From an uncultured Candidatus Saccharibacteria bacterium (GTDB taxonomy: Bacteria; Patescibacteriota; Minisyncoccia; Phycocordibacterales; CAZNKJ01), in the NCBI GenBank assembly GCA_964574145.1, contig CAZNKJ010000002.1:2075-66074 (forward strand): 64,000 bases of DNA, in the 5' to 3' direction. The notes under the pieces were generated by a model, which made no database searches, had not been told where the DNA came from, and saw only the letters and a list, made by a program, of their open reading frames with translations. This document shows positions 1 through 55,609 of this stretch, one piece after another. Position 1 is the first letter of the stretch. Each line of letters opens with the position of its first letter. The position numbers were made by a program, and so were the translations under genes.

Positions 1-96
1 CCTTTGGAGCTTACCTTTGAAGCAGAAACACTTGCGAGATGAAACCAGTAGTCGCATCTACACAAGCAAGTAAGTGTATTTTAGCATAAAAAAGGA

Positions 97-130
97 CCTC
101 CAACCGAATAAACGGAGGAGGTCCAGATTG
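97..130 (-). terminator. Rho-independent terminator (stem ggacctcc/ggaggtcc, T-run on minus strand) downstream of the 196..549 gene
   Basis: 8-bp GC stem followed on the minus strand by ttttttat, about 65 nt past the stop of the minus-strand ORF. Confidence 0.5.
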
Positions 131-195
131 AGTGAGAGCTTCGCCCAATAAAGGTTCAAGAATACGAGAGGTTCAAGACCTCAAGTATCCAAGGT

Positions 196-549
196 TCATT
201 TCCGAGCAGACGAAACGCCGATGTCACCGAGACGGCAGCCGTCCCAGAAGTAGTTGACGTCGAAACCGTTCTCATCAGGGTTACCGACGACGACGAAGTT
301 ACCGACCGCAGAAATGGAACTGGTGCGAACGTACTTACCACGAAGTAGATAGATGCCACGAACCTTGAAATAGGCGGTGACAGCGTAGCTGACTTCGGGA
401 GCGTTCGGAATGTGCTCAACCTCGGTGATGAGGGCTTGCTGTTCGGTCCCCGTCTTGCTGAACGAGTTAGGCACTTCATCCTTACGGATTGCGAGCCATT
501 TGTCAGCTCGGACAATGTCGTCTTGTGCGAACTTCTCTTTAAGCTCCAA
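196..549 (-). CDS. hypothetical protein in a GC-rich (about 58%) patch; TTG start embedded in a palindromic repeat
   Basis: 117-aa ORF with protein-like composition; GC far above the window background; flanked by the REP-like hairpins; no recognisable family. Confidence 0.35.
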   Translation of the reverse strand: MELKEKFAQDDIVRADKWLAIRKDEVPNSFSKTGTEQQALITEVEHIPNAPEVSYAVTAYFKVRGIYLLRGKYVRTSSISAVGNFVVVGNPDENGFDVNYFWDGCRLGDIGVSSARK

Positions 550-585
550 AGGTTTAACCTTTGGAGCTTACCCTTTGGAGCTTAC
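540..585. repeat. 33-bp perfect palindrome (taagctccaaaggtt-t-aacctttggagctta) plus a tandem extra 14-mer cctttggagcttac
   Basis: Arms 540-554 and 556-570 are exact reverse complements; 14-mer present at 558-571 and 572-585; same element at 1138-1169 and truncated at 1-23. Confidence 0.85.
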
Positions 586-693
586 ATGCCAGACCGCCTA
601 ACTACGTTGAGCCGTCTCGGTTGAGTATGCGTGTGGATAACTATCAACAGCAATAGTCATCAACGGTGGTTGCTCTCCAATCGTATTTATGCT

Positions 694-1095
694 TTACTTA
701 GTGTTGGTTAGAGGTTCTTTCTTGTTCCGATATTTTTTTGCCAGCGTTTTATACAGGCGACGTGTTTTGTCCATGGCGCAAAAGGCCAGCCGATTCTCGA
801 ATTGCGATACAAGGTCAGCGCATTTTTTTTGGATGCGTTTAGGGGTACGAATTAATAGTGCGCCCACAAGGGGAAGTATTCTCAGCACGATTCTAATAAA
901 CAAGAATAGCAATATGGCCTCTGCAATGAATGTTAGCCATGGATGCAGCGAAGCATTGATTATTATGCCGAGACCTGCAAGGAAAACGTGTAGTTCTTCA
1001 AGTTTTGTGATGATTGCTTGCGACATGGGATCGATCCTTTTAAGCAAGTGGTTTTCACAAGCCCTGGTGTTTGTTCGTAGCAAACACCAGGGCAA
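694..1095 (-). CDS. hypothetical small membrane protein (one or two TM segments), possibly starting at an internal Met
   Basis: 133-aa ORF with a hydrophobic stretch LAGLGIIINASLHPWLTFIAEAILLFLFIRIVL; more protein-like than the overlapping plus-strand ORF; lies between two copies of the palindromic repeat. Confidence 0.3.
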   Translation of the reverse strand: MPWCLLRTNTRACENHLLKRIDPMSQAIITKLEELHVFLAGLGIIINASLHPWLTFIAEAILLFLFIRIVLRILPLVGALLIRTPKRIQKKCADLVSQFENRLAFCAMDKTRRLYKTLAKKYRNKKEPLTNTK

Positions 1096-1137
1096 CTCAT
1101 TAGCCGCGAAATTGGGGTAGATTTAAGCAATACTCTA

Positions 1138-1169
1138 TAAGCTCCAAAGGTTTAACCTTTGGAGCTTAC
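1138..1169. repeat. second copy of the 33-bp palindromic hairpin (core CCAAAGGTT-T-AACCTTTGG)
   Basis: Identical 15-bp arms to the 540-570 copy. Confidence 0.85.
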
Positions 1170-1266
1170 TTTTATGTGTTGTTTTTTCATATTTAATTCT
1201 TGACCTTATCGAGTTTCTTGCGAACCTCATATAGCGGATATTGCGTAAGCAATAAACTTGTATGAA

Positions 1267-1291
1267 ATACCAAAGGTTAAACCTTTGGTAT
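1267..1291. repeat. related palindrome ataccaaaggtt-a-aacctttggtat (same AAGGTT/AACCTT core)
   Basis: Perfect 12-bp arms; shares its core with the 540 and 1138 hairpins and with the terminator at 16997. Confidence 0.8.
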
Positions 1292-1334
1292 AGAGGCAAA
1301 TGACAAATTTGTTGTTTATTTTTTCTTCAAGTCT

Positions 1335-1733
1335 CTAAACTACCTCATTTTGAGGTTCTGTTACAGGATTCTGTGCTTCTTTTGGATTTGCTCCAAAACG
1401 ATTTGAACCCTCTTGGCTTTCTAGGATCATAAAGAAAAGGATTACCAACATTCCTATCATTGGTATAAGGTAAATAAGCATCCACCAACCACTTTTGTCA
1501 GTATCGTGGAGTCTGCGTACCGCTACTGCTATACTTGGAAGTAATACCGCCAAGCTGTATATTCCTCCTAGGATGCCCATTCCAAAATGTGAGGAGATAC
1601 CGAACACTCCTTCAATGAGATTTAGAGCTAAAATAATTGTTAGATTAACAAGTGTGAACATCCAAAATTCTTTTCGTCCAGCTCGTCCTTCAAAAACTGT
1701 ATATTTTTTTAAAACATCAAGATACCATTCCAT
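1335..1733 (-). CDS. DUF805 family inner-membrane protein (YhaH/YhaI-like)
   Basis: Signature RRLHDTDKSGWW followed by TM helices, typical of DUF805. Confidence 0.75.
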   Translation of the reverse strand: MEWYLDVLKKYTVFEGRAGRKEFWMFTLVNLTIILALNLIEGVFGISSHFGMGILGGIYSLAVLLPSIAVAVRRLHDTDKSGWWMLIYLIPMIGMLVILFFMILESQEGSNRFGANPKEAQNPVTEPQNEVV

Positions 1734-1938
1734 ACATTTATTTTTTATAATTAGTATTTAATACGTTAATTATGTCATAAAAACAGTTGTAGTATAAGAG
1801 TAAAGTGTTCATAAAAGGATAATGTTTCCAGTAGTTCTAATTTCAAGCTGTTGTTATATGAAGAGTACGTTTTATCTTGTTTAATTATTTTTGTATTGAT
1901 ATTGTAAACAATGAAATAAAAAATAATGTAGTTTTAGT

Positions 1939-2619
1939 ATGGATTATAGAAATACAGAAGAAATTATCTTAATAGACAAACCAAAGGGAATTACATCATA
2001 TGATGTAATTCGTAAGCTTAAATATAAACTTAGTTTGCAATCAGCAGAGTGTCGAATACGTATTGGACACGCCGGTACTTTAGACCCACTTGCCACTGGA
2101 CTTCTTATTATAGGTATTGGGGCTGGAACTAAAAAATTAAATGAGTATTTAAAGCTTCCAAAAATCTATATAACAGAAATTTTACTTGGTATACGTACTG
2201 ATACAGGAGATTTGGAGGGGAAGGTATTAGAACGTAAGGAAATTTTGAAACTTTCTGATACTTGTGTGAAAAAGGTACTTAAAGAAATGGTGGGGAAATT
2301 GGAGCTTCCTGTGCCGGCTTACTCTGCCATAAAAAGGGGAGGGGAAGCGCTTTATAAAAAAGCTCGGCGAGGAGAGCAGATAGAGTTGCCTATTAAGGTT
2401 ATGAAAATAGACCGAGCTAGCTTCTGTGACATGTCGCCAGAATCAGATGGAGGATATGTCGTTGAAGTTGAGTTTGCTGTAGGAAGTGGTACTTATATAC
2501 GTTCTCTTGCCGAAGAGTTTGGTAAGAGGCTAGGATATCCAGCGACAGTTAAAGAGTTGCGTAGAACAAGTGTTGGAGATTTTGATATTAAAGACGCTAA
2601 GAAATTAGAAGATTTCTGA
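1939..2619 (+). CDS. truB: tRNA pseudouridine(55) synthase TruB
   Basis: Catalytic motif GHAGTLDPLATGLL; 226 aa, TruB-like length. Confidence 0.9.
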   Translation: MDYRNTEEIILIDKPKGITSYDVIRKLKYKLSLQSAECRIRIGHAGTLDPLATGLLIIGIGAGTKKLNEYLKLPKIYITEILLGIRTDTGDLEGKVLERKEILKLSDTCVKKVLKEMVGKLELPVPAYSAIKRGGEALYKKARRGEQIELPIKVMKIDRASFCDMSPESDGGYVVEVEFAVGSGTYIRSLAEEFGKRLGYPATVKELRRTSVGDFDIKDAKKLEDF

Positions 2620-2637
2620 TATGTATTAAAAAATAAT

Positions 2638-2668
2638 AGCGGATTCACTTTCTGTGATTCCGCTATAT
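2638..2668. terminator. imperfect hairpin (agcggattcac / gtgattccgct) between convergent truB and the 2663..3040 gene
   Basis: 10 of 11 bp stem located between two convergent stops. Confidence 0.4.
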
Positions 2669-3040
2669 TGTGAAGGCATACTGTCCTTTGCGTTCTAGGA
2701 TCACCTTGCCGACGGTAGATTTTTTTGCCCCTGACCGTTTCTTCTTCTTTGGAGTTTTTGTTTGCGCTCGTGCGCTACGTGTGCGGGCACTCATTATTGA
2801 AAAATATTTTCCTGCCGCACATCTGTAAATCGAACGTTTCTCTTCGTGAAGATATAATTCATTCAGAGAGTATCTGAGGGCCTCTTGAAACTCCATCCTT
2901 TCTTTTTTGTCGTAAATTTTGTAGATAAGGGATTCAAGCAGATCATTTGAAAAGCCATACCCCTTCTTTTTTCCTGCATAGTCGACAGCCTCGTCAAAGG
3001 CTGTTTTTTCGATGGAATACATCACAACCTCCGCTGGCAA
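2663..3040 (-). CDS. hypothetical protein with a lysine/arginine-rich C-terminal tail
   Basis: 125-aa ORF; basic tail KTPKKKKRSGAKKS; no family recognised. Confidence 0.4.
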   Translation of the reverse strand: MPAEVVMYSIEKTAFDEAVDYAGKKKGYGFSNDLLESLIYKIYDKKERMEFQEALRYSLNELYLHEEKRSIYRCAAGKYFSIMSARTRSARAQTKTPKKKKRSGAKKSTVGKVILERKGQYAFTI

Positions 3041-3110
3041 GATTATTACGCAAATGTCTATACACTTTATAACAAAAAAAGACTAGATTGTCAATATTTT
3101 ATTAAAAAAT

Positions 3111-3150
3111 AAAAACTCGTCCGGGAGCATGTTAACGGACGAGTTTTTTA
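3111..3150. terminator. bidirectional rho-independent terminator (ctcgtccg ... cggacgag flanked by A5 and T6)
   Basis: 8-bp GC-rich stem with 12-nt loop, T-run on both strands; sits just downstream of the 3156..3593(-) gene. Confidence 0.7.
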
Positions 3151-3155
3151 TTTGT

Positions 3156-3593
3156 CTAGATAGTTCCTAAGGAAGGGAATGCTCTGATGAAGTCCTTCTC
3201 CCTTATATGTTGCACAGTAAATGATTTGATGTGTCTTTTAATCACTAACTTACAGCGACGGACGAAACTTTCGTTACCGCTGAGACATTTTGGACACACG
3301 ATCATGGCGTGTGCACATCCATTACTGGATACTCGACACACTTCTGTCGTTCCGTCAGTTTTTTTGTTGATTTTTTCGATTTCACACCGAAGGGTATCGA
3401 TTGTTTCATTCGTCACAATGCCTGGTATCCAAATGAATACTTTGCATTTTTCCACCACAAGAATTGCAGCGATGAGAGTTTGATCTTCTTCCATCACGGT
3501 TTCTAGTTTTGGTGGCGGTTGGTCTTTTGAAAAAAAACTTGGAAATAGCTGTTGCAGTATTTCTCGGTCCTGCAGATCATTTTTGGGCATCAT
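3156..3593 (-). CDS. hypothetical protein with a C-terminal CxxxxC...CxxC zinc-ribbon-like motif
   Basis: CRVSSNGCAHAMIVCPKCLSGNESFVRRC cysteine cluster; 145 aa; family not recognised. Confidence 0.4.
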   Translation of the reverse strand: MMPKNDLQDREILQQLFPSFFSKDQPPPKLETVMEEDQTLIAAILVVEKCKVFIWIPGIVTNETIDTLRCEIEKINKKTDGTTEVCRVSSNGCAHAMIVCPKCLSGNESFVRRCKLVIKRHIKSFTVQHIREKDFIRAFPSLGTI

Positions 3594-3675
3594 GACCCCC
3601 TATATCTATAGTTTAAAGAGCTCCATTTAAGAGAATACAACAAAAGAAGCATCTATGCAAATTTCACCAAAAGGA

Positions 3676-4128
3676 TTATATAAATGATTTTTCTACCACG
3701 GATTTAACGTCAGAACCATCTGCTTTTCCTTTAAGTTCTTGCATGATTGCTCCTATAAGTTTACCTATTTGTTCTTTGTCGGATATACCAAGTTCTTCCT
3801 TTTTTGCTAGAACTACTTTTTCTATTTCTTTTATGTTCATCATTTGCGGAAGATAGCCCTCTATGATTTTCAATTCCTCTTTTTCTTTCTCCGCTAGATC
3901 GTTTCTATTACCTTTTTCAAATTGTTCTATGGAATCTTTACGTTGTTTAGCTGCGCGCGTAATTACTACAAGAGCATCTTCATCAGAGAGTTCTTCATTT
4001 GGCTTTCTTTTTTTAGCCACTAGTTCGTTAGTGAATGAGGAAATAAGTCCGCGAATTGTGGTCAAGCGTATAGAGTCTTTGGCACGCATTGCTTCCACCA
4101 TTTCTTTTCTGAGCTGTTGTTGAATCAT
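3676..4128 (-). CDS. GatB/YqeY domain-containing protein
   Basis: 150 aa; YqeY-like pattern (LTTIRGLISSF...EKEELKIIEGYLPQ). Confidence 0.75.
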   Translation of the reverse strand: MIQQQLRKEMVEAMRAKDSIRLTTIRGLISSFTNELVAKKRKPNEELSDEDALVVITRAAKQRKDSIEQFEKGNRNDLAEKEKEELKIIEGYLPQMMNIKEIEKVVLAKKEELGISDKEQIGKLIGAIMQELKGKADGSDVKSVVEKSFI

Positions 4129-4210
4129 GTCTTATGAAAGTATTTAGGTATATTTATTCATGGTATCAAAAAGCTCCATACATTCAAGCTCTTTTGCTAT
4201 ACTTAGAGGC

Positions 4211-6895
4211 ATGATTACAGGAGAGTGGGAGAAATTGGATACAGAGGGAGTACTCAGAGCGCTTTCCAGTACAAGAAAGAATGGATTAAATGAAGATGAG
4301 GTACTGGTTCGTCAGAAACGAGACGGGAAAAATGTACTTCAAGATCAAAAGAGAGAGAGTTTTGTTGGAAAAGTGGCAAGACAATTTAGAAGTCCTCTTG
4401 TTTTTATATTATTTGTAGCTGGAATAGCTACTGTGTTACTTGCTGAATACATTGATTCAACAGTTATTTTCATCGCCCTTCTTATTAATGTTGTTATCGG
4501 TCTTTTCCAAGAGGAGCGTGCTTCTCGAGCTTTTACAAAACTTAACGAATCGCAAGAGTATTATTCTGTGGTTATTAGAGGTGGTGTAAAGAAAAAAGTA
4601 TTGTCTAAAGAATTAGTACAAGGGGATATTGTGGAGATAGAAGGGGGAAAATATGTTTCAGCAGATCTTAGAATTCTTTTAGAAAAAGACTTATCGTTAA
4701 ACGAGGCAGCTTTAACTGGAGAATGGGTTGCCGTTTCAAAAGATACAAAGGAGCTTTTACAAGGAGTACCTCTTGCTGAGAAGCGTAATATGGTGTGGCG
4801 TGGCACTCTTGTGGCTGAAGGGTATGGTGTTGGGATAGTTGTTGCTACTGGAGATAAAACAGAAATAGGGAAAATATCTCGCGAGCTGGGTACTATTGAG
4901 AAACACGCCACACCTCTTCAACAGAATATTCGCAGTATTGCTCGTTTTCTTTCCTATATTGTCATTGGGTCTGTAATAACCATCTTTCTTCTCGGGATCT
5001 TACGTGGGGAGACAATAGGGGAGATGCTTCTTGTGACTATTGCAATAGCTGTTGCGACTGTGCCTTCAGGTCTTCCTGCTGCTGTAACTATAGTTCTCGC
5101 TTTAGGTATGGAAAAAATCTTAGAGCGTGGAGGGTTGGTACGTAATTTGTTGGCTGCTGAGACACTCGGAGCAACTACAATTATCCTTACTGACAAAACA
5201 GGAACTTTAACTGAAGCAAAGATGAAACTCTCTTCTATTTTTGTTTCTGATACGTTAAATAGAAAGAGAAAACTTTTAGGGTGGACTGATGATGAGAGAA
5301 AAGTTTTAGCAATGGCTGTGATGGCTTCAGACGCTTTTGTTGAAGAGAAAAAAGAAGAGGAAAATATTCCTAGTAAATTAGTAGTTCACGGGAGACCTAT
5401 AGAACGAGCTGTAGTATTGGCTGGGCTAGAGGTGGGGATTTCACAGAATGTTATTTCTAAGGAAATGCCACGTCTTGATTATTTGCAGTTTGAATCAAAA
5501 AGACGTTATGGTGGGTCGCTACATAAATTTCCTGAGAAGAAATCTAACCGCTTTTATATAACAGGATCACCAGAAATGTTGCTTGAAAAAGCCACATATA
5601 TTTATTTAGATGGAAAACAAAAAAAACTCACCGATGCTGTGCGGGCTCAATTTACTAAAATTCAACAGAAATATAGTAAAAAAGGAGAGCGTTTTATTGC
5701 AGTGACATATAAGGATGTAAAATGGGACACCATTCCTAATTTAGAAGATGATAAGTTAGACGAGGAGCTTATTAAAGGTATGGTGTTTGTTGGATTCCTT
5801 TCTTTTAATGATCCTGTACGTGCGGATGTACCTGATGCCATAAAAGAGGTTAAACATGCTGGAGCTCGCGTACTCATGGTTACGGGAGATAACCCTCAGA
5901 CTGCGTTAAATATTGCCATAGCAGTAGGTATAGCAGAGAAAAAGAGTGAGGTTAAGACTGGGAAAGATATTGAAAAATGCAATGATGAGGAACTGTATCA
6001 GCTTATAAAAGAAAATAAAGTGTTTGCTCGCACTTTACCAAGTCAGAAATTACGCATAGCCCGTATTTTGAAGAATAAGGATGAAATAGTGGCTATGACT
6101 GGGGATGGTGTCAATGATGCTCCAGCTTTGCGTAGCGCTGATATTGGGATTGCTGTTGGGAGTGGTACGGAAGTTGCGAAAGAGGCTTCGGACATTATTC
6201 TCCTCAACAACAGTTTTTCTATAATCGTTTCTGCTATTGAAGAAGGAAGAAGGATAATAGATAATCTTAAGAAAATCGTAGCTTACTTGCTCTCTACTAG
6301 CTTTAGTGAAATTTTTGTTATAGGAGGAGCTTTGGCTATGGGAGCGCCTCTCCCTTTATTACCGGCGCAGATTTTGTGGGCGAATATTATTGAAGAGGGT
6401 TTGATGAGTTTTTCATTTGCGTTTGAAAAGAAGGCGCCAGGAATAATGCGTCGTGACCCGCGTGAAAGCGCTTCGCGAAACATAATGACTCCTCGTCTAC
6501 GTCAATTGATAGTGATTGTTGGGGTTACTACTGGGATATTTTTAATAGGTCTTTATTTTTTCTTACTTTCTTTTGATCTACCTATAGAAGAGATTCGTAC
6601 TATTATGTTTGTGGCTCTTTCGCTCGACGCATTGTTTTTTTCTTTTTCATTAAAGAGTTTGAATAGACCACTTTGGAAGATAGACTTATGGTCAAACAAA
6701 TTCTTACTCATGGCTTTTTCAATGAGTGTTTTACTTCTTCTTGCTGCTGTTTCTCTCCAGCCACTTAGAACGCTTCTTTCCCTCACGCCACTTTCAGTTC
6801 TTGATATTTCATTTCTAGTAGGAGTGGGGCTTTTTAATCTATTGACTATTGAATTTGCCAAATATTTTATATTTGAGCGGGGTATGCGTAAATGA
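4211..6895 (+). CDS. P-type cation-transporting ATPase (type II, Ca2+/Mg2+-ATPase-like)
   Basis: DKTGTLT phosphorylation site, MVTGDNPQTA and TGDGVNDAPAL hinge motifs, about 10 TM segments; start moved to the ATG at 4211 (agagg SD 4 nt upstream) instead of the ORF-track start at 4160. Confidence 0.9.
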   Translation: MITGEWEKLDTEGVLRALSSTRKNGLNEDEVLVRQKRDGKNVLQDQKRESFVGKVARQFRSPLVFILFVAGIATVLLAEYIDSTVIFIALLINVVIGLFQEERASRAFTKLNESQEYYSVVIRGGVKKKVLSKELVQGDIVEIEGGKYVSADLRILLEKDLSLNEAALTGEWVAVSKDTKELLQGVPLAEKRNMVWRGTLVAEGYGVGIVVATGDKTEIGKISRELGTIEKHATPLQQNIRSIARFLSYIVIGSVITIFLLGILRGETIGEMLLVTIAIAVATVPSGLPAAVTIVLALGMEKILERGGLVRNLLAAETLGATTIILTDKTGTLTEAKMKLSSIFVSDTLNRKRKLLGWTDDERKVLAMAVMASDAFVEEKKEEENIPSKLVVHGRPIERAVVLAGLEVGISQNVISKEMPRLDYLQFESKRRYGGSLHKFPEKKSNRFYITGSPEMLLEKATYIYLDGKQKKLTDAVRAQFTKIQQKYSKKGERFIAVTYKDVKWDTIPNLEDDKLDEELIKGMVFVGFLSFNDPVRADVPDAIKEVKHAGARVLMVTGDNPQTALNIAIAVGIAEKKSEVKTGKDIEKCNDEELYQLIKENKVFARTLPSQKLRIARILKNKDEIVAMTGDGVNDAPALRSADIGIAVGSGTEVAKEASDIILLNNSFSIIVSAIEEGRRIIDNLKKIVAYLLSTSFSEIFVIGGALAMGAPLPLLPAQILWANIIEEGLMSFSFAFEKKAPGIMRRDPRESASRNIMTPRLRQLIVIVGVTTGIFLIGLYFFLLSFDLPIEEIRTIMFVALSLDALFFSFSLKSLNRPLWKIDLWSNKFLLMAFSMSVLLLLAAVSLQPLRTLLSLTPLSVLDISFLVGVGLFNLLTIEFAKYFIFERGMRK

Positions 6896-8054: not shown

Positions 8055-8148
8055 ACGTGTCGAAGTCCGCCTTTGACATCTATTGTCAAAGGCGGACTTC
8101 GACACGGAGACGGGCTTCGAAGGCGTGTCAAAGGCGGACTTCGACACG
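8055..8148. repeat. GC-rich composite repeat: 23-bp inverted repeat (cgtgtcgaagtccgcctttgaca / tgtcaaaggcggacttcgacacg) plus a third direct copy
   Basis: Arms 8055-8077 and 8083-8105 perfectly complementary (loop tctat); third copy 8124-8148; T-run at 8172-8177; generates the spurious ORF 8037..8234. Confidence 0.8.
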
Positions 8149-8611: not shown

Positions 8612-8647
8612 GAATTAAATATTTTGTATTTTCTTTTATTTGAGATA

Positions 8648-8683
8648 CAAAACCGCATGACTTGTATGTCATGCGGTTTTGTG
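8648..8683. terminator. bidirectional terminator hairpin (aaaccgcatgac / gtcatgcggttt) shared by rplU(+) and recR(-)
   Basis: 12-bp perfect stem, 6-nt loop, flanked by A and T runs. Confidence 0.75.
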
Positions 8684-16996: not shown

Positions 16997-17028
16997 TAAT
17001 AACGAAGGTTTAACCTTCGTTATTTCCT
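16997..17028 (+). terminator. palindromic terminator taataacgaaggtt-t-aaccttcgttatt (same AAGGTTTAACCTT core as the 1-1300 repeats)
   Basis: 14-bp perfect arms, 40 nt after the stop of 16575..16958. Confidence 0.65.
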
Positions 17029-18695: not shown

Positions 18696-18741
18696 CCCAA
18701 AGCCTTTCTACGGCTGAGATGAGCCGTAGAAAGGCTTTGGG
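18696..18741 (+). terminator. 20-bp perfect inverted repeat (cccaaagcctttctacggct / agccgtagaaaggctttggg, 6-nt loop)
   Basis: Exact complementarity over 20 bp; GC-rich relative to surroundings; T-run only 12 nt further on. Confidence 0.55.
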
Positions 18742-19357: not shown

Positions 19358-19380
19358 AAAAGAATGAAAATAGAAGAATA

Positions 19381-19416
19381 CAACACCCACCAGTCTAGCC
19401 AGACTGGTGGGTGTTG
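19381..19416 (+). terminator. 16-bp perfect hairpin caacacccaccagtct-agcc-agactggtgggtgttg
   Basis: 24 nt downstream of the 18980..19357 stop. Confidence 0.65.
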
Positions 19417-20150
19417 TATATGTATTTGGTTTTAAACAAATGACTTTTGACGTAGTCGCTTTCTAGTTTTTAATAGGGGAGTATACCCAACTTTCTTTCT
19501 TAGCAGAATCAGTAATCTTTTAAATAAGGTTCGCACAATATATCTTTTGCGACACTTATGCAAACACTTTGGACTTTAAATATAAAAAATAAAATACTCA
19601 GACTTTTGCTTTTGCTACTATGTGTGTATAGTTAGTTTTTTATACACCACCTTCCTTCTCTGTCCGAGATCTCAGTTAGACTCCTTACAGTTTTTTCTAT
19701 AAATCTTATTAAAAAATGAACTCTGTCCCCTACTGATACTAGATTAGAACATTTAAGTAAATGGTGTCAATAAAATCTATTTGGTATCAATTAAAATACA
19801 AAGAGACTGTCCGTTTTAACTTTAACAGGCAGTCTCTATATTCTATGGTATTCCTTTAATTAATCCAATGTACAGTTCGCTGGTCGAGTCTTGTGCGGAC
19901 AGCGATGTTTGGGGCAACAACACACCCCACAACACAGAGTTAGCGCATCCCAACCATTATCAAATTCATACTGTTCTCCTAGTTTAAAAATTCTCGGGAA
20001 GGTAAAAAAGAATTTCTTTTGTCCCACTGACTCTTGTTTAAAAAAATCAGTTCTTCTTCTTAAGAAAATTTTCTTATACATGAGAATCTTTCCTTCTATT
20101 CGTTAGGTTACTACTTAGAGCTTAACACGTTATCCTTTATTTATTAGTTG

Positions 20151-28513: not shown

Positions 28514-28612
28514 ACATAAACTATACGTTTTTTGTGGCTTTGATTCAAGGGATAAAAGATCAAGAAAACCTTCTTAAGAAAGTTTTGAATAATAAACATA
28601 AGAAAATTAAAT

Positions 28613-28642
28613 AGCGCGGATTCTTATTGGAGAATCCGCGCT
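28613..28642 (-). terminator. terminator hairpin agcgcggattc / gaatccgcgct downstream of the lipoprotein gene
   Basis: 11-bp perfect stem, 8-nt loop, AT-rich tail. Confidence 0.6.
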
Positions 28643-28663
28643 ATGGAAGCTTGAAACTTCCAT

Positions 28664-52813: not shown

Positions 52814-53698
52814 TTAAAACAAGGTTGGAGTATCGCTCAAACTTTCTCTACACACGTCTTTTCTTTGTCTTTTCTGCTTGGTTCGACCTTGATCCAGATA
52901 CATTTTTTGTAATTTTTTCCCGGAAGCCTCTCTATAAGAACAAAATTCACAATTATTACCTGAGATGGGAATATTATTACTCTCAAGACATTTTTTGATT
53001 TTCTCCAAAGTTGGTTCTATCCATTCTGTTTGTCCATCACATGGAACGACTGTTATTTCAAATTTTAATTTTCCATCAAAAACATCCTCTTCGGCACGAG
53101 CATTAGCATAAACAAAATATCCAGTTTTACTTACAGGAAAATTATTTTGAAGAAGAAGCCATTGATATACTCCTATTTGTCTCTTGTATTGATCTTCCCA
53201 AGAAGAATCAGATAAAGATTCTATTCTTCCTTTTTTAGAAGTTGATTTATAATCAACTACAATCAGCTCCCCTCTTTCATTTTGCCATATATCATCTACG
53301 GCTCCTGAAACAATAAAACCTGTAGGTTTATGTGTAAACTGTAAACCTTTAAAATTTTCTCTCCAAATATCCATATCTTTATGTTCATACGGTATTGCTT
53401 TAATAGAGTTTTGTGTCATTAGAGGGTGTGATTCCTTTTTTGCACGATAAATATCAAACTCTTTTTTAAAGAGAGTATCAACTGCTATATTTATAGTAAA
53501 AGCAGGCCCTCTTGGGCGGGCTGTGCCTAATTTATTGTTCAAATAGAAACAACGAGGACATTCTATAAAAAGATCTATTTTTGATCGAGAAAGCCTCCAT
53601 TTTTTACCTCCATAATTCCAATCTGAAGAACGGTTTGGGTTATATGCCATTGGCAATACTATATCACAGACATAGCAACATCTGGTATAGAGATTCAA
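52814..53698 (-). CDS. Cas4-like PD-(D/E)xK (RecB-family) nuclease with Fe-S cysteines, standalone
   Basis: SKIDLFIECPRCFYL (Cas4 N-terminal Cys motif), VVDYKST, QYKRQIGVYQWLL (QhxxY), C-terminal C-x12-C-x2-C. Confidence 0.7.
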   Translation of the reverse strand: MNLYTRCCYVCDIVLPMAYNPNRSSDWNYGGKKWRLSRSKIDLFIECPRCFYLNNKLGTARPRGPAFTINIAVDTLFKKEFDIYRAKKESHPLMTQNSIKAIPYEHKDMDIWRENFKGLQFTHKPTGFIVSGAVDDIWQNERGELIVVDYKSTSKKGRIESLSDSSWEDQYKRQIGVYQWLLLQNNFPVSKTGYFVYANARAEEDVFDGKLKFEITVVPCDGQTEWIEPTLEKIKKCLESNNIPISGNNCEFCSYREASGKKLQKMYLDQGRTKQKRQRKDVCRESLSDTPTLF

Positions 53699-54195
53699 TC
53701 TTCGTCTTCAAAATCATCATCTACTACACGAGTATGGTTTCCATCATAGGAAAAAAACTTCAAACGACTCTCGACAAACCAAAGAATAGAAAAAACAAAA
53801 AGAGTTAAAATGGTTGTGAAAGTTGCTAAAATATATAATTTATAACCAGTAGCTACTCCAACACCTGCAGCTACCCAAAGACCTGCTGCTGTTGTAATTC
53901 CGCGCACTGATGATTCTCTGACAATAATGAGCCCTGCTCCGATAAAGCCAACCCCTGTAATAATTCCCGACATGACACGAAGAGGGTCCACATTCGTAAT
54001 ACCTATCAAAGTTTGTGCAACTACAGTTGAAATTATAATAAACAAACAAGCTCCTAGAGAAACGAGTGCGTATGTACGCATTCCCGCAGTTTTTCCAGCT
54101 ATTGCTCTTTCGGCTCCCAAAGACATACCTAATATCATAGCGATAAGTAGTTGTAAAAAGAGAGATATTTCTGAGCTAATGGATAATATTTCCAT
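53695..54195 (-). CDS. MgtC/SapB family membrane protein
   Basis: GMSLGAERAIAGKTAGMRTYALVSLGACLF. Confidence 0.8.
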   Translation of the reverse strand: MEILSISSEISLFLQLLIAMILGMSLGAERAIAGKTAGMRTYALVSLGACLFIIISTVVAQTLIGITNVDPLRVMSGIITGVGFIGAGLIIVRESSVRGITTAAGLWVAAGVGVATGYKLYILATFTTILTLFVFSILWFVESRLKFFSYDGNHTRVVDDDFEDED

Positions 54196-54221
54196 TGTAT
54201 TTTTAATTTAATCTAATGCTA

Positions 54222-54731
54222 CTAAATAGTTTCAAATGTAGCCATTATTGGTTGCTGGTCTTTATCAATAAGAATAGAATCCACACCTAACTCAAAAGCT
54301 CTATCTCCATTGTCGCTATAAAGTACAGCATAATATATATTACCGGGGGTAGTGTCTCGAAGAAGCTCTACACTACCTCGCGAAACACCCTCTGGGAACA
54401 AGTAAGCCCCTAGTACGTTACCTAACTTACCATTAAGGTCTTCATGTATAGCAACCCATCCTGAGTGTTCAAGAATTACATTAGAAACACGAACATAACT
54501 TCCCGCCTCTTGATTAACAATATCTACTCGTGCTGTTTCGCCAGAGAGAACAGGAAAACCTTTCTTTGTTAATGTTCTTTCTTCTTTTGTTATCACCTTT
54601 TCTTCCTTTTGGTATTTTTCAGAATTTTTAACTTTAGTATCGATATTCCATATTAAAACAGTACCGATTCCTATAGTAAATCCAACAAAAGCAGAAATGA
54701 GAATTTTTTGATTTATTGAAAGTGTATACAT
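54222..54731 (-). CDS. membrane-anchored protein of unknown function
   Basis: N-terminal TM then about 130-aa soluble domain; no family recognised. Confidence 0.4.
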   Translation of the reverse strand: MYTLSINQKILISAFVGFTIGIGTVLIWNIDTKVKNSEKYQKEEKVITKEERTLTKKGFPVLSGETARVDIVNQEAGSYVRVSNVILEHSGWVAIHEDLNGKLGNVLGAYLFPEGVSRGSVELLRDTTPGNIYYAVLYSDNGDRAFELGVDSILIDKDQQPIMATFETI

Positions 54732-54781
54732 AATTCACATTTTTTTAGACTTGATTAAAATATTTTCTTCTACGAAAGTCA

Positions 54782-55609
54782 TTATACCCCTTTTGGAGTC
54801 TTACACAACAAAAGCCCCTCAGCTACAACTTTTTCTAATTTTTTCTCCGAAAAAACCTCTTTTAGTACTTCGGGCTTTGTGTGCAGCTGTTTACATAGGA
54901 TAATTCCTTTTTCAAGCAGAAGTTTTTTTTCTTGATTAGTAGGACTAACAAGAGCTGTGACTGGCTGGATACCAGTTTCTTCAATGAGATCTTGTAAAGA
55001 TCCACCCTCAGGGTAACTCCAAGACATCATGGTTAATCCACGACAAGTACCATATTCAACAGCATCTTTTGTAAAACGTGTATTGGTGATAAGCCATCCT
55101 TCGTCAACAACTTTTGGTTTTAAGTCAACGAAACGGGCATCTACATAAAGAGCTACTTTTAAATCGGAAGTTAGAGAAAGAGAATTATGAAATTTCATTT
55201 CTGCACCTATTCGCACACCATCTTTTTCTGCAATAAGATCTACTTCATGATTAGCGCACTTACCATTTGTAATAACTCCTGTTTTTGTACTATATCCCCG
55301 CGCTTTAAAAATTTCAGCGACAAAATCTTCAAAAGGAAATCCACTTGGACCTAGCTCTTGAACTGCTCTCTTCATAGAATAGCGAGCTGCAGGAATATGT
55401 GCTTTTCTTTTTTTTAGAAGAGAGAAGGCGTGTTTATATATATGAGAAGTGGTATCATTTTCTTGTACCTCTTTTTTTACATGCGCAACTATTGCATCAG
55501 AAATTGTAGGATCAGCCCCAGATCGTCTGAGAGAAGATCGGAGTTTTTCTGGAATAAACGGTTCAGTGTCACCATTCTGTTTTTTAATATTAGGATACTG
55601 ATTATTCAT
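54782..55609 (-). CDS. ATP-cone domain fused to an Mrr-like restriction-endonuclease catalytic domain
   Basis: N-terminal KKQNGDTEPFIPEKLRSSLRRSGA (ATP-cone, NrdR-like); C-terminal FEDFVAEIFKARGY ... HEVDLIAE ... AEMKF (Mrr_cat D/ExK). Confidence 0.6.
   Translation of the reverse strand: MNNQYPNIKKQNGDTEPFIPEKLRSSLRRSGADPTISDAIVAHVKKEVQENDTTSHIYKHAFSLLKKRKAHIPAARYSMKRAVQELGPSGFPFEDFVAEIFKARGYSTKTGVITNGKCANHEVDLIAEKDGVRIGAEMKFHNSLSLTSDLKVALYVDARFVDLKPKVVDEGWLITNTRFTKDAVEYGTCRGLTMMSWSYPEGGSLQDLIEETGIQPVTALVSPTNQEKKLLLEKGIILCKQLHTKPEVLKEVFSEKKLEKVVAEGLLLCKTPKGV

Follow-up and report, generated by a model that had tools for sequence, protein, structure and literature searches.

A perfect palindrome at the joints of foreign-looking segments in a genome of the candidate phyla radiation

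How two short segments of foreign composition came to be joined to native DNA, and to each other, at copies of one and the same hairpin is the question raised by the first 1.2 kb of the DNA analysed here, a 64-kb stretch of contig CAZNKJ010000002.1 (hereafter the window, at its full length). The initial annotation had proposed gene cassettes separated by palindromes resembling recombination sites, or accessory genes bounded by repetitive extragenic palindromes (REPs) or miniature inverted-repeat transposable elements (MITEs). The window comes from the housekeeping core of a small AT-rich, Parcubacteria-like genome of the candidate phyla radiation (CPR); the locus at its start fits no known family, and the evidence on it consists of four hairpin copies at assembly edges. 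The explanation favoured here, tentatively, is that the hairpin belongs to a family native to this lineage and acted as a joining point at which foreign modules were joined in the cell. The region may represent a real recombination hotspot or a joining error, and we infer both that the joints were made in the cell and not in assembly, and the mechanism of joining.

The hairpin family and its joints

The palindrome, TAAGCTCCAAAGGTT-T-AACCTTTGGAGCTTA, was found to pair perfectly over 31 nt (15+1+15), not over the 33 nt first annotated, at window positions 540-570 and 1138-1168, where it is embedded in a conserved repeat of 37 nt (535-571 and 1133-1169; 97% identity). Its right arm, the 14-mer CCTTTGGAGCTTAC, starts at 1, 558, 572 and 1156 (the last had been placed at 1155), with start-to-start gaps of 557, 14 and 584 nt, and six matches to it with up to two mismatches were observed in the window against 0.35 expected. 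Moreover, the window has three copies of the 19-nt core CCAAAGGTTNAACCTTTGG and four of the 13-nt core AAGGTTNAACCTT, including the copy at 17005-17017 that had been anticipated from reuse of the motif near 17 kb, and neither core was recovered in shuffled sequences. The hairpins fold as DNA at -14.5 to -14.7 kcal/mol (z -6 to -8.6), and their polarity is identical in all full copies, with a T at the centre and any extra arm on the right side.

The mosaic runs in the order native DNA, hairpin, segment B, hairpin with an extra right arm, segment A and hairpin (Table 1), and the breaks in GC content and composition coincide exactly with the hairpins. The 31-nt form is confined to the first 1.2 kb, sits solely at these breaks and was not found in the remaining 62.8 kb. 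The segments are less GC-rich than the 55-60% first ascribed to them, reaching 50% in segment A (15-539; 53.5% in its open reading frame, ORF1) and 44% in segment B (586-1132) against a background of 36% +/- 3%; their foreign composition nevertheless stood, with a third-position GC content (GC3) of 0.63 and 0.44, respectively, versus 0.26-0.30 in ten native genes.

Table 1. Coordinates of the features at the start of the window and of the distal cousin hairpin
Feature	Position	Strand	Remarks
Truncated palindrome right arm CCTTTGGAGCTTAC	1..14	+	Cut by the window start; followed by CTTTGAAGC
Segment A non-coding tail, past the terminator	15..96	-	Homology to contig L036
ORF1 intrinsic terminator, GGACCTCC..GGAGGTCC then TTTTTT	97..130	-	-11 kcal/mol, z -4.9
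ORF1 3' untranslated region	131..195	-	Three direct copies of half-site AAGGTTCA
ORF1 last 38 codons, stretch resembling a variable region of a diversity-generating retroelement	196..309	-	Codon comparison with L036
ORF1, 117 aa	196..549	-	TTG start inside the palindrome
37-nt repeat, copy 1	535..571	+	Holds palindrome 540-570
Tandem extra right arm CCTTTGGAGCTTAC	572..585	+	Counterpart of 13 nt in contig L037
Segment B	586..1132	-	44% GC vs background 36% +/- 3%
Perfect DnaA-box consensus TTATCCACA	632..640	-	Sole copy in 64 kb; 47 nt from hairpin and extra arm
ORF2, 110 aa	694..1026	-	ATG start at 1026; AAGGA ribosome-binding site
Unrelated perfect hairpin, 13-bp stem, 7-nt loop	1061..1093	.	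Upstream of ORF2
37-nt repeat, copy 2	1133..1169	+	Palindrome 1138-1168; boundary of foreign and native AT-rich DNA
Cousin hairpin ATACCAAAGGTTAAACCTTTGGTAT, 12-bp stem	1267..1291		Same 19-nt core; 44 nt past the DUF805 stop, native 30% GC DNA
Second cousin hairpin AATAACGAAGGTTTAACCTTCGTTATT, 13-bp stem	16998..17024		Core AAGGTTTAACCTT; after a 127-aa ORF

Two cousins of the palindrome, the nearer of which had already been recognised in the initial annotation, are found in native AT-rich DNA, shortly past the 3' ends of ordinary genes, namely a DUF805 gene and an ORF of 127 aa. They are alike (86% over 28 nt), and both of their arms are altered together, as paired stem changes. The hairpin family is small and built on AAGGTT-N-AACCTT, and judging from these paired changes and from the native setting it is owned by this lineage and not a synthetic oligonucleotide. 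The cousin at 1267-1291 is probably the terminator of the DUF805 gene.

Sequence resembling the right arm recurs beside the joints. Three of the four known long copies are followed by another right arm, perfect over 14 nt at 572-585, perfect over 13 nt in the contig L037 (VAPL011220241.1), and present as a look-alike at 15-23. This look-alike, CTTTGAAGC, is a quasi-copy of the arm (9/10) that abuts it at joint 14/15, and it belongs to segment A, since the homologous contig L036 carries GTTTCAAGC at the same place; the abutment of the arm and its look-alike suggests arm-guided joining. The presence of an arm or arm-like sequence beside the joints therefore indicates that foreign DNA was joined at the base of the stem.

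Two other contigs bear directly on these joints. L002 (VAPK010348128.1, 439 bp) is identical to window 193-631 (100%) and runs from ORF1 through the hairpin and its tandem arm to the 46th nucleotide of segment B; the joint between segment A, hairpin and segment B is thereby reproduced base for base in a contig deposited separately, whose assembly may or may not be independent of that of the window. Among 241 million metagenome records, a single further contig, L037, carried the long palindrome. Its 30% GC genes encode a helix-turn-helix protein, zinc-ribbon proteins and a 323-aa protein; past them come the palindrome, an extra right arm of 13 nt and, as far as the contig end, GC-rich DNA. A search for the long palindrome in 185,579 species genomes, viral contigs, phages and plasmids found none. 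At the other GC-rich/AT-rich boundary of L037, a 23-nt perfect inverted repeat was observed (112-134 and 198-220, with 63 nt between).

A minus-strand ORF of 12 codons (MKKQHIKVSSKG*, 1185-1150) runs from native AT-rich DNA into the 1138-1168 palindrome, where the central TAA ends it, and may be what is left of a native gene start broken at the hairpin. Other long perfect hairpins lie between genes of the window at 8056-8106, 8647-8682, 18696-18741, 19378-19419 and 28611-28644, with stems of 14-23 bp, loops of 4-6 nt and sequences unrelated to the 31-nt palindrome.

Content of the two segments

The initial annotation placed one small minus-strand ORF in each segment, and both exist. ORF1 begins within the palindrome, where a possible AAGG ribosome-binding site also lies, and corresponds to the C-terminal ~115 aa of a family of ~270-aa proteins seen in CPR bacteria, the N-terminal ~150 aa being absent. 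In the family alignment, it begins right after a conserved GWYAE motif and is devoid of the conserved N-terminal half. Its domain has a C-type-lectin fold (C-type-lectin/FGE). ORF1 has one close relative (P0002, 68% identity), and an exhaustive search returned 688 relatives at E <= 0.001, most of the top matches being proteins of 200-290 aa aligned over their last ~115 residues only, and one family member was annotated in Candidatus Komeilibacteria. Pfam, PHROGs and NCBIfam gave no assignment for ORF1, ORF2 or the full-length members of the ORF1 family, which was not found among viral contigs either. Segment A, which has no promoter of its own, is a gene fragment carrying the C-terminal domain, and not a complete accessory gene.

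The sole DNA relative of segment A is L036 (Logan, run SRR16642406), with 80% identity over window 16-539. The homology begins and ends at the two hairpins of the window, and the L036 copy is GC-rich versus its 42% GC neighbours, has an ORF starting at the same residue, and lacks any flanking hairpin. The terminator and tail (15-130) match L036 2500-2613 at 102 of 116 aligned bases (88%), compared with 78% over the ORF. The terminator after ORF1, first noted in the initial annotation, was borne out by its folding energy and T run on the minus strand. Half-site AAGGTTCA in the 3' untranslated region (plus-strand positions about 152-162, 169-178 and 189-198) is similar to the hairpin core AAGGTT(N)AA, and two of its three copies are kept in L036. 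The terminator together with the ~80-nt non-coding tail past ORF1 (window 15-130) contains a predicted stem CTTGC..GCAAG.

The codon comparison between ORF1 and L036 revealed two regimes. In the first 75 codons, mismatches at codon positions 1, 2 and 3 numbered 10/11/25, the pattern expected of a gene under purifying selection. In the last 38 codons they numbered 10/12/6, so that 22 of 28 fell on positions 1 and 2 versus 21 of 46 elsewhere in ORF1 (Fisher p = 0.007), and among the 14 codon pairs of this stretch with a difference at position 1 or 2, both sequences have NNC in 12 (such as AAC/AGC, AAC/GGC, TGC/AAC and CTC/TAC). In diversity-generating retroelements (DGRs), AAC codons in the template repeat lead to NNC codon changes in the variable region, and the end of ORF1 varies in the manner of such targets. 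A DGR clade of their own is found in CPR bacteria, and every known variable region lies in a C-type-lectin fold; ORF1 shares the C-type-lectin/FGE fold with DGR variable proteins such as Mtd and TvpA and those of the CPR-restricted DGR clade 2 (PMC8144416). ORF1 differs from these in that the C-terminal domain stands alone and that no template repeat (by self-BLAST of the window), reverse transcriptase or Avd protein was found in the 64 kb. Similarly, by the criteria of PMC6602519, no GC-rich stem with a GRNA loop was detected 4-34 nt past the variable stretch, the hairpins downstream being a small one at 168-182 (5-bp stem, 5-nt loop) and that of the terminator (97-130). As the template repeat, the reverse transcriptase and the canonical target hairpin were not found, ORF1 is DGR-like and not a demonstrated DGR target. 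Segment A was also considered as a structured RNA (z = -4.5 on the minus strand), which was rejected in favour of coding on account of the third-position-biased change in the first 75 codons.

Segment B yielded no DNA or protein relative. Its ORF2, annotated as 694..1095, more plausibly starts at ATG 1026, the 133-aa form from TTG 1095 being less likely; the product is membrane-like, with a hydrophobic middle and a basic C-terminus, and is an orphan, its homologue search having been empty. The DnaA box of segment B has counterparts elsewhere: TTATCCACA was observed within 7-60 nt of a core hairpin at four loci (window 632-640, L006 ~7110, L019 ~3640 and L024 731-739), and the composite AAAGTTATCCACAGTT..CCAAAGGTTTAACCTTTGG is present twice in one Saccharibacteria contig.

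How the joints may have arisen

In the favoured explanation, the hairpin, or its 13-14-nt right arm CCTTTGGAGCTTA(C), would be the preferred joining point, and modules would be strung there in one orientation. Joining would take place at the base of the stem by a recombination needing the arm sequence alone, and its agent could be an enzyme specific for the site, with its gene elsewhere, or template switching on short homology at a stalled hairpin. Segment A would be a ready-made module composed of a DGR-type C-type-lectin variable domain, a terminator and a conserved tail, and it is found again, with matching ends and hairpin-free, in the unrelated 42% GC genome of L036. Joining in the cell is favoured because the A-B joint was reproduced in L002, L037 shows the same architecture and extra arms were seen at read level, and because the module ends coincide with the hairpins of a native family. 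Moreover, the extra arm measures 13 nt in L037 versus 14 nt in the window, and is therefore not an invention of the assembler. If the joints are real, the locus is a compact case of genome-reduced CPR bacteria gaining foreign modules with no integron machinery in view, one of these modules being the hypervariable ligand-binding domain of a DGR-type protein, and it would point to a CPR-wide palindromic element able to sit in essential genes. CPR bacteria are believed to be attached to other cells in life and to rely on DNA import.

Several observations weigh against this explanation. The window starts inside the palindrome, 4 nt beyond its centre, and position 1 is most likely the end of the assembled contig, since an arbitrary cut would almost never fall inside a palindrome; the earlier remark that the element continues upstream is, as a statement about the record, probably wrong. 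The entire feature is accordingly confined to the first 1.2 kb of a probable contig end, a classic site of chimeric tips, and the known long-hairpin copies are four, from one sequencing project and at assembly edges. The Logan contig L001 (run SRR6439372; 5,034 nt, corresponding to window ~1140-6170) terminates inside the 1138-1168 palindrome, and native DNA running into segment B was seen, among readable assemblies, in the window only. DUF805, TruB and RmuC are each indexed on three contigs of up to 77,919 nt (NCBI), whereas for the exact ORF1 protein the index lists the 439-bp contig alone, and the ORF2 variants (three versions or antisense) are absent from the exact-protein index, so that the long indexed contigs may be without segments A and B. 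Upstream extension by exact-protein look-ups (DUF805, TruB, RmuC, ORF1, the ORF2 versions and antisense, and a 54-aa ORF) brought nothing past the hairpin, the look-ups having returned only Logan contigs and the 439-bp NCBI contig. In addition, no recombinase, transposase or reverse transcriptase was matched in the 64 kb, and a promoterless gene fragment such as segment A leaves the array with no evident selective function.

These observations lend weight to the main rival, a chimeric contig tip, which is a serious alternative although we regard it as somewhat less probable than joining in the cell. According to this account, the assembler, or template switching during the polymerase chain reaction on the library, joined a high-coverage CPR contig to low-coverage, GC-richer fragments; the 31-nt hairpin would be real and common to several genomes or elements, and the native-B-A order would not be chromosomal. 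The start of the window and the stop of the Logan contig, both inside the palindrome, are as expected from it. All known long copies lie at changes of flank, two of them splitting AT-rich from GC-rich DNA, as random pairing gives; ORF1 is known on a 439-bp contig and its native neighbours on contigs of up to 77.9 kb; and GC3 values of 0.63 and 0.44 versus 0.26-0.30 mean that the segments evolved outside this genome. However, the A-hairpin-B joint is base-identical in L002, and the contig crosses two full hairpin copies (46 and 37 nt), which requires spanning reads or k-mers. A chimera would still need a replicon with pieces of ~550 nt split by the hairpin, so that the puzzle is only moved. Should the joints prove artificial, the locus would serve as a warning that a shared perfect 31-nt palindrome can yield cassette-like chimeric tips on good metagenome contigs.

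A site-specific cassette system, integron-like or built of Xer-dependent pdif modules with a tyrosine recombinase encoded beyond the contig end, was judged unlikely. Segments A and B would then be mobile cassettes of ~557 and 584 nt, each bounded by CCTTTGGAGCTTAC. One palindrome does bound foreign segments in the same orientation, and to this extent the annotated cassette layout held, although neither the attC architecture nor an integrase was recovered. Direct 14-nt cores flank each segment (1, 558, 572 and 1156), the unit sizes are typical of environmental cassettes, and segment A is a discrete module in another genome (L036). As in integron cassettes, including clusters of attC sites lacking integron integrases (CALINs), the units measure ~0.55-0.6 kb, share one orientation, each end in a hairpin-forming repeat and have a heterogeneous foreign composition, with the joint at the stem base and, as in CALINs, no integrase in view. 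The attC sites are imperfect palindromes of about 55-150 nt, in which R'' (RYYYAAC) and R' (GTTRRRY) pair at the base of the stem and extrahelical bases set the polarity. The repeat of the window differs in being 31 nt long (37 conserved, 46 with the extra arm), in having no R''/L''/L'/R' boxes, and in pairing 15+15 perfectly with no bulges or extrahelical bases; its stem base reads TAAGCTC/GAGCTTA, and a GTTTAAC/GTTAAAC heptamer is found only at the tip. The palindrome lacks every testable attribute of attC, no intI was matched among the 44 ORFs scanned across the 64 kb and no attI is present, the upstream side lying beyond the contig end, one "cassette" is a domain fragment, and the locus is not an integron. 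As to the mobility expected of cassettes, segment A is present with the same ends in L036, but that contig carries the module without any such site, and segment B has no relative.

The likeness to Xer/dif modules (the pdif modules of Acinetobacter plasmids, and Xer-using integrative elements) lies in small modules bounded by short near-palindromic sites, with the recombinase outside the module. A shared point is also found in the Kaiserbacterium contig L024 (59% GC), where a doubled palindrome of 41 nt with the same core (671-711) precedes a tyrosine recombinase gene of the Phage_integrase family by ~80 nt; single-recombinase Xer systems keep their site beside the gene (XerS/difSL and XerH/difH). 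The dif-type sites span 28-31 bp, with two 11-bp arms around an asymmetric spacer of 6-8 bp, and pdif orientations alternate. The site of the window, in contrast, is fully symmetric about a 1-nt centre, its copies are direct, and the window contains no Xer gene. On its other side, the L024 palindrome is flanked by an M23-like gene, and it is preceded by tandem direct repeats of 18-19 nt (ATAGTG(G)AGTAATCACGAA) together with an 11-nt inverted pair; the whole (L024 540-800) looks like an origin or recombination region.

Silent C-terminal cassettes, such as those of the R64 shufflon, the invertible tail-fibre segments of Mu and P1, and pilS, share with segment A a promoterless fragment encoding a C-terminal variable domain, which starts exactly at a recombination-site-like repeat and at the domain boundary of its family. 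They differ in that ORF1 is a single fragment with a TAA stop in frame, with no full-length expressed copy or invertase in view; a shufflon-type in-frame fusion was not supported, as this TAA stop lies in the ORF1 frame at 568-570, at the outer edge of the palindrome. The IS200/IS605-type ends (insertion after TTAC) were rejected, there being no subterminal hairpins inside the segments and no TnpA, as was a hairpin telomere or protelomerase site, since the flanks are not inverted copies of each other.

The alternative annotation, accessory genes bounded by REPs or MITEs, did not survive, given that the 31-nt form is not dispersed in the 64 kb and that segment A is a fragment. REPs, bacterial interspersed mosaic elements (BIMEs), REPINs and MITEs also consist of palindromes of 20-40 nt between genes, sometimes doubled. 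In the REP family as defined in PMC3733652, a conserved GTAG or CGTC tetranucleotide stands at one foot of the palindrome, and the foot in the window (GTAAGC / CTCT(T/A)TAAGC) has neither. Further differences are that only 3-4 copies occur in 64 kb, clustered, with no Y1 transposase, and that they bound foreign DNA and are not dispersed in native intergenic DNA.

Ordinary intrinsic terminators next to ordinary resident genes are an explanation already largely refuted, and we consider it very improbable. The attributes of an intrinsic terminator are present at 97-130 on the minus strand after ORF1 and plausible for the cousins at 1267-1291 and 16998-17024, which lie just 3' of ordinary genes. 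Moreover, copy 2 (1133-1169) is followed by CTTTTATGTGTTGTTTTTT and, like the 1138-1168 palindrome it holds, has the score of a terminator on the plus strand, numerous other long and perfect hairpins lie between genes here, and many core matches in unrelated phyla are plain terminators. Against this, the first 1.2 kb contain three identical copies of 31-37 nt and the remaining 62.8 kb not one. The T run beside the 31-nt copies is on the plus strand only (1169-1188), where no gene precedes it; the strand of the ORFs has no T run, and ORF1 has its own terminator at 97-130. The codon usage of the ORFs is foreign, and they are absent from the syntenic relative L039. The initial annotation would have abandoned its proposal had the hairpin been a generic terminator of housekeeping genes and the ORFs syntenic in relatives; the cousins do lie at 3' ends of ordinary genes, but the 31-nt form is restricted to breaks in composition, and L039 shows no synteny for the ORFs.

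A synthetic adapter or linker concatemer, in which the palindrome would be an adapter-adapter junction and the segments size-selected inserts, accords with the perfect palindrome around one central base, the tandem partial copies, two inserts much alike in length (520 and 547 nt), the truncation of a gene where a segment ends and a long form known from one sequencing project, but can be dismissed: the identical 19-nt core recurs in a native hairpin 100 nt away and the 17-kb relative has paired stem changes, CPR genomes of unrelated studies also carry the core (two Moranbacteria having orthologous copies in frame), a string search of the literature gave no oligonucleotide or adapter match (its four matches being chance primers), a 1.2-kb concatemer cannot be one short-read library molecule and the joint was assembled twice, and segment A shares its first codon with the L036 homologue, an unlikely coincidence under random shearing.

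The core in other genomes and the surroundings of the locus

In the 185,579 species genomes, the 19-nt core was found at 33 loci, nine of them in CPR genomes, which by a rough estimate make up a few per cent of the bases searched; it was absent among viral contigs, and most of the non-CPR loci look like plain terminators or chance matches. Doubled palindromes with the core were observed at four independent CPR loci, namely the L024 locus described above, in frame in cysS of two Moranbacteria (L035 2553-2598 and L003 203-248), in frame in polA (L009, about 355-402), and between genes in the Saccharibacterium L032. The Moranbacteria cysS copy is orthologous between the two, and the cysteinyl-tRNA synthetase (CysRS) of the window has a gap at the insertion. 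The core, CCAAAGGTT-N-AACCTTTGG, is also in frame in murD (L014 4986-5004), and the in-frame CPR copies translate as ..SKGSTFGVPKVEPLE.. and ..PKGLTFGAKVKPLG.. Such residence inside housekeeping genes is shared with the Rickettsia palindromic elements. These CPR loci and the native cousins therefore exclude a synthetic adapter, and GC-rich CPR genomes share the core. In four planctomycete metagenome-assembled genomes (L004, L015, L016 and L033; Sedimentisphaerales / Phycisphaerales), the core was observed within a block of ~80 nt, ..TTGTCAAACAACTTTACCTGGCAAC-core-GCCAGCC..AAATCCGCTTTTGGCGAATTT, which may be a conserved regulatory or RNA element.

A broader proposal, which we hold to be doubtful, is that of an undescribed hairpin joining system of CPR bacteria. 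In it, the CCAAAGGTT-N-AACCTTTGG palindrome would be an insertion or recombination site moving short modules, DGR-type lectin domains among them, across genomes of very different GC content, and would also spread alone, in frame into cysS, polA and murD. A possible mechanism would be cruciform-targeted, reverse-transcriptase-primed insertion of 5'-truncated copies, which would fit because ORF1 is domain-only, the terminator and tail are included, and arm-like microhomology is present at the 3' joint.

Around the locus, the adjoining genes encode DUF805, TruB, YqeY, a P-type ATPase, RmuC, RecR, DnaB, CysRS and CorA; further along lie cell-wall and division genes, DnaK/DnaJ/GrpE, RpoA and several tRNA synthetases. 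The proteins nearest to TruB reach at most 68% identity, and those with names belong to Parcubacteria, Magasanikbacteria and further CPR groups. L039, the nearest relative available (TruB 63% identical), keeps the gene order to the right of truB, and neither DUF805 nor ORF1 or ORF2 is present in it. A Pfam search of 44 ORFs across the 64 kb gave no integrase (Phage_integrase), transposase, Y1_Tnp (RAYT) or reverse transcriptase (RVT). The window has no tRNA genes and so no tRNA-type attachment site, and gave no Rfam hits at the gathering threshold; at E <= 1, positions 1-1400 together with L036, L037 and L002 gave a single chance microRNA match, and a blastn search with 1-1300 found no counterpart in phages or plasmids. 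At 52814-55609, amid housekeeping genes, lie genes with a PD-(D/E)XK nuclease and an Mrr-like restriction endonuclease domain, the only defence-like genes noticed in the window.

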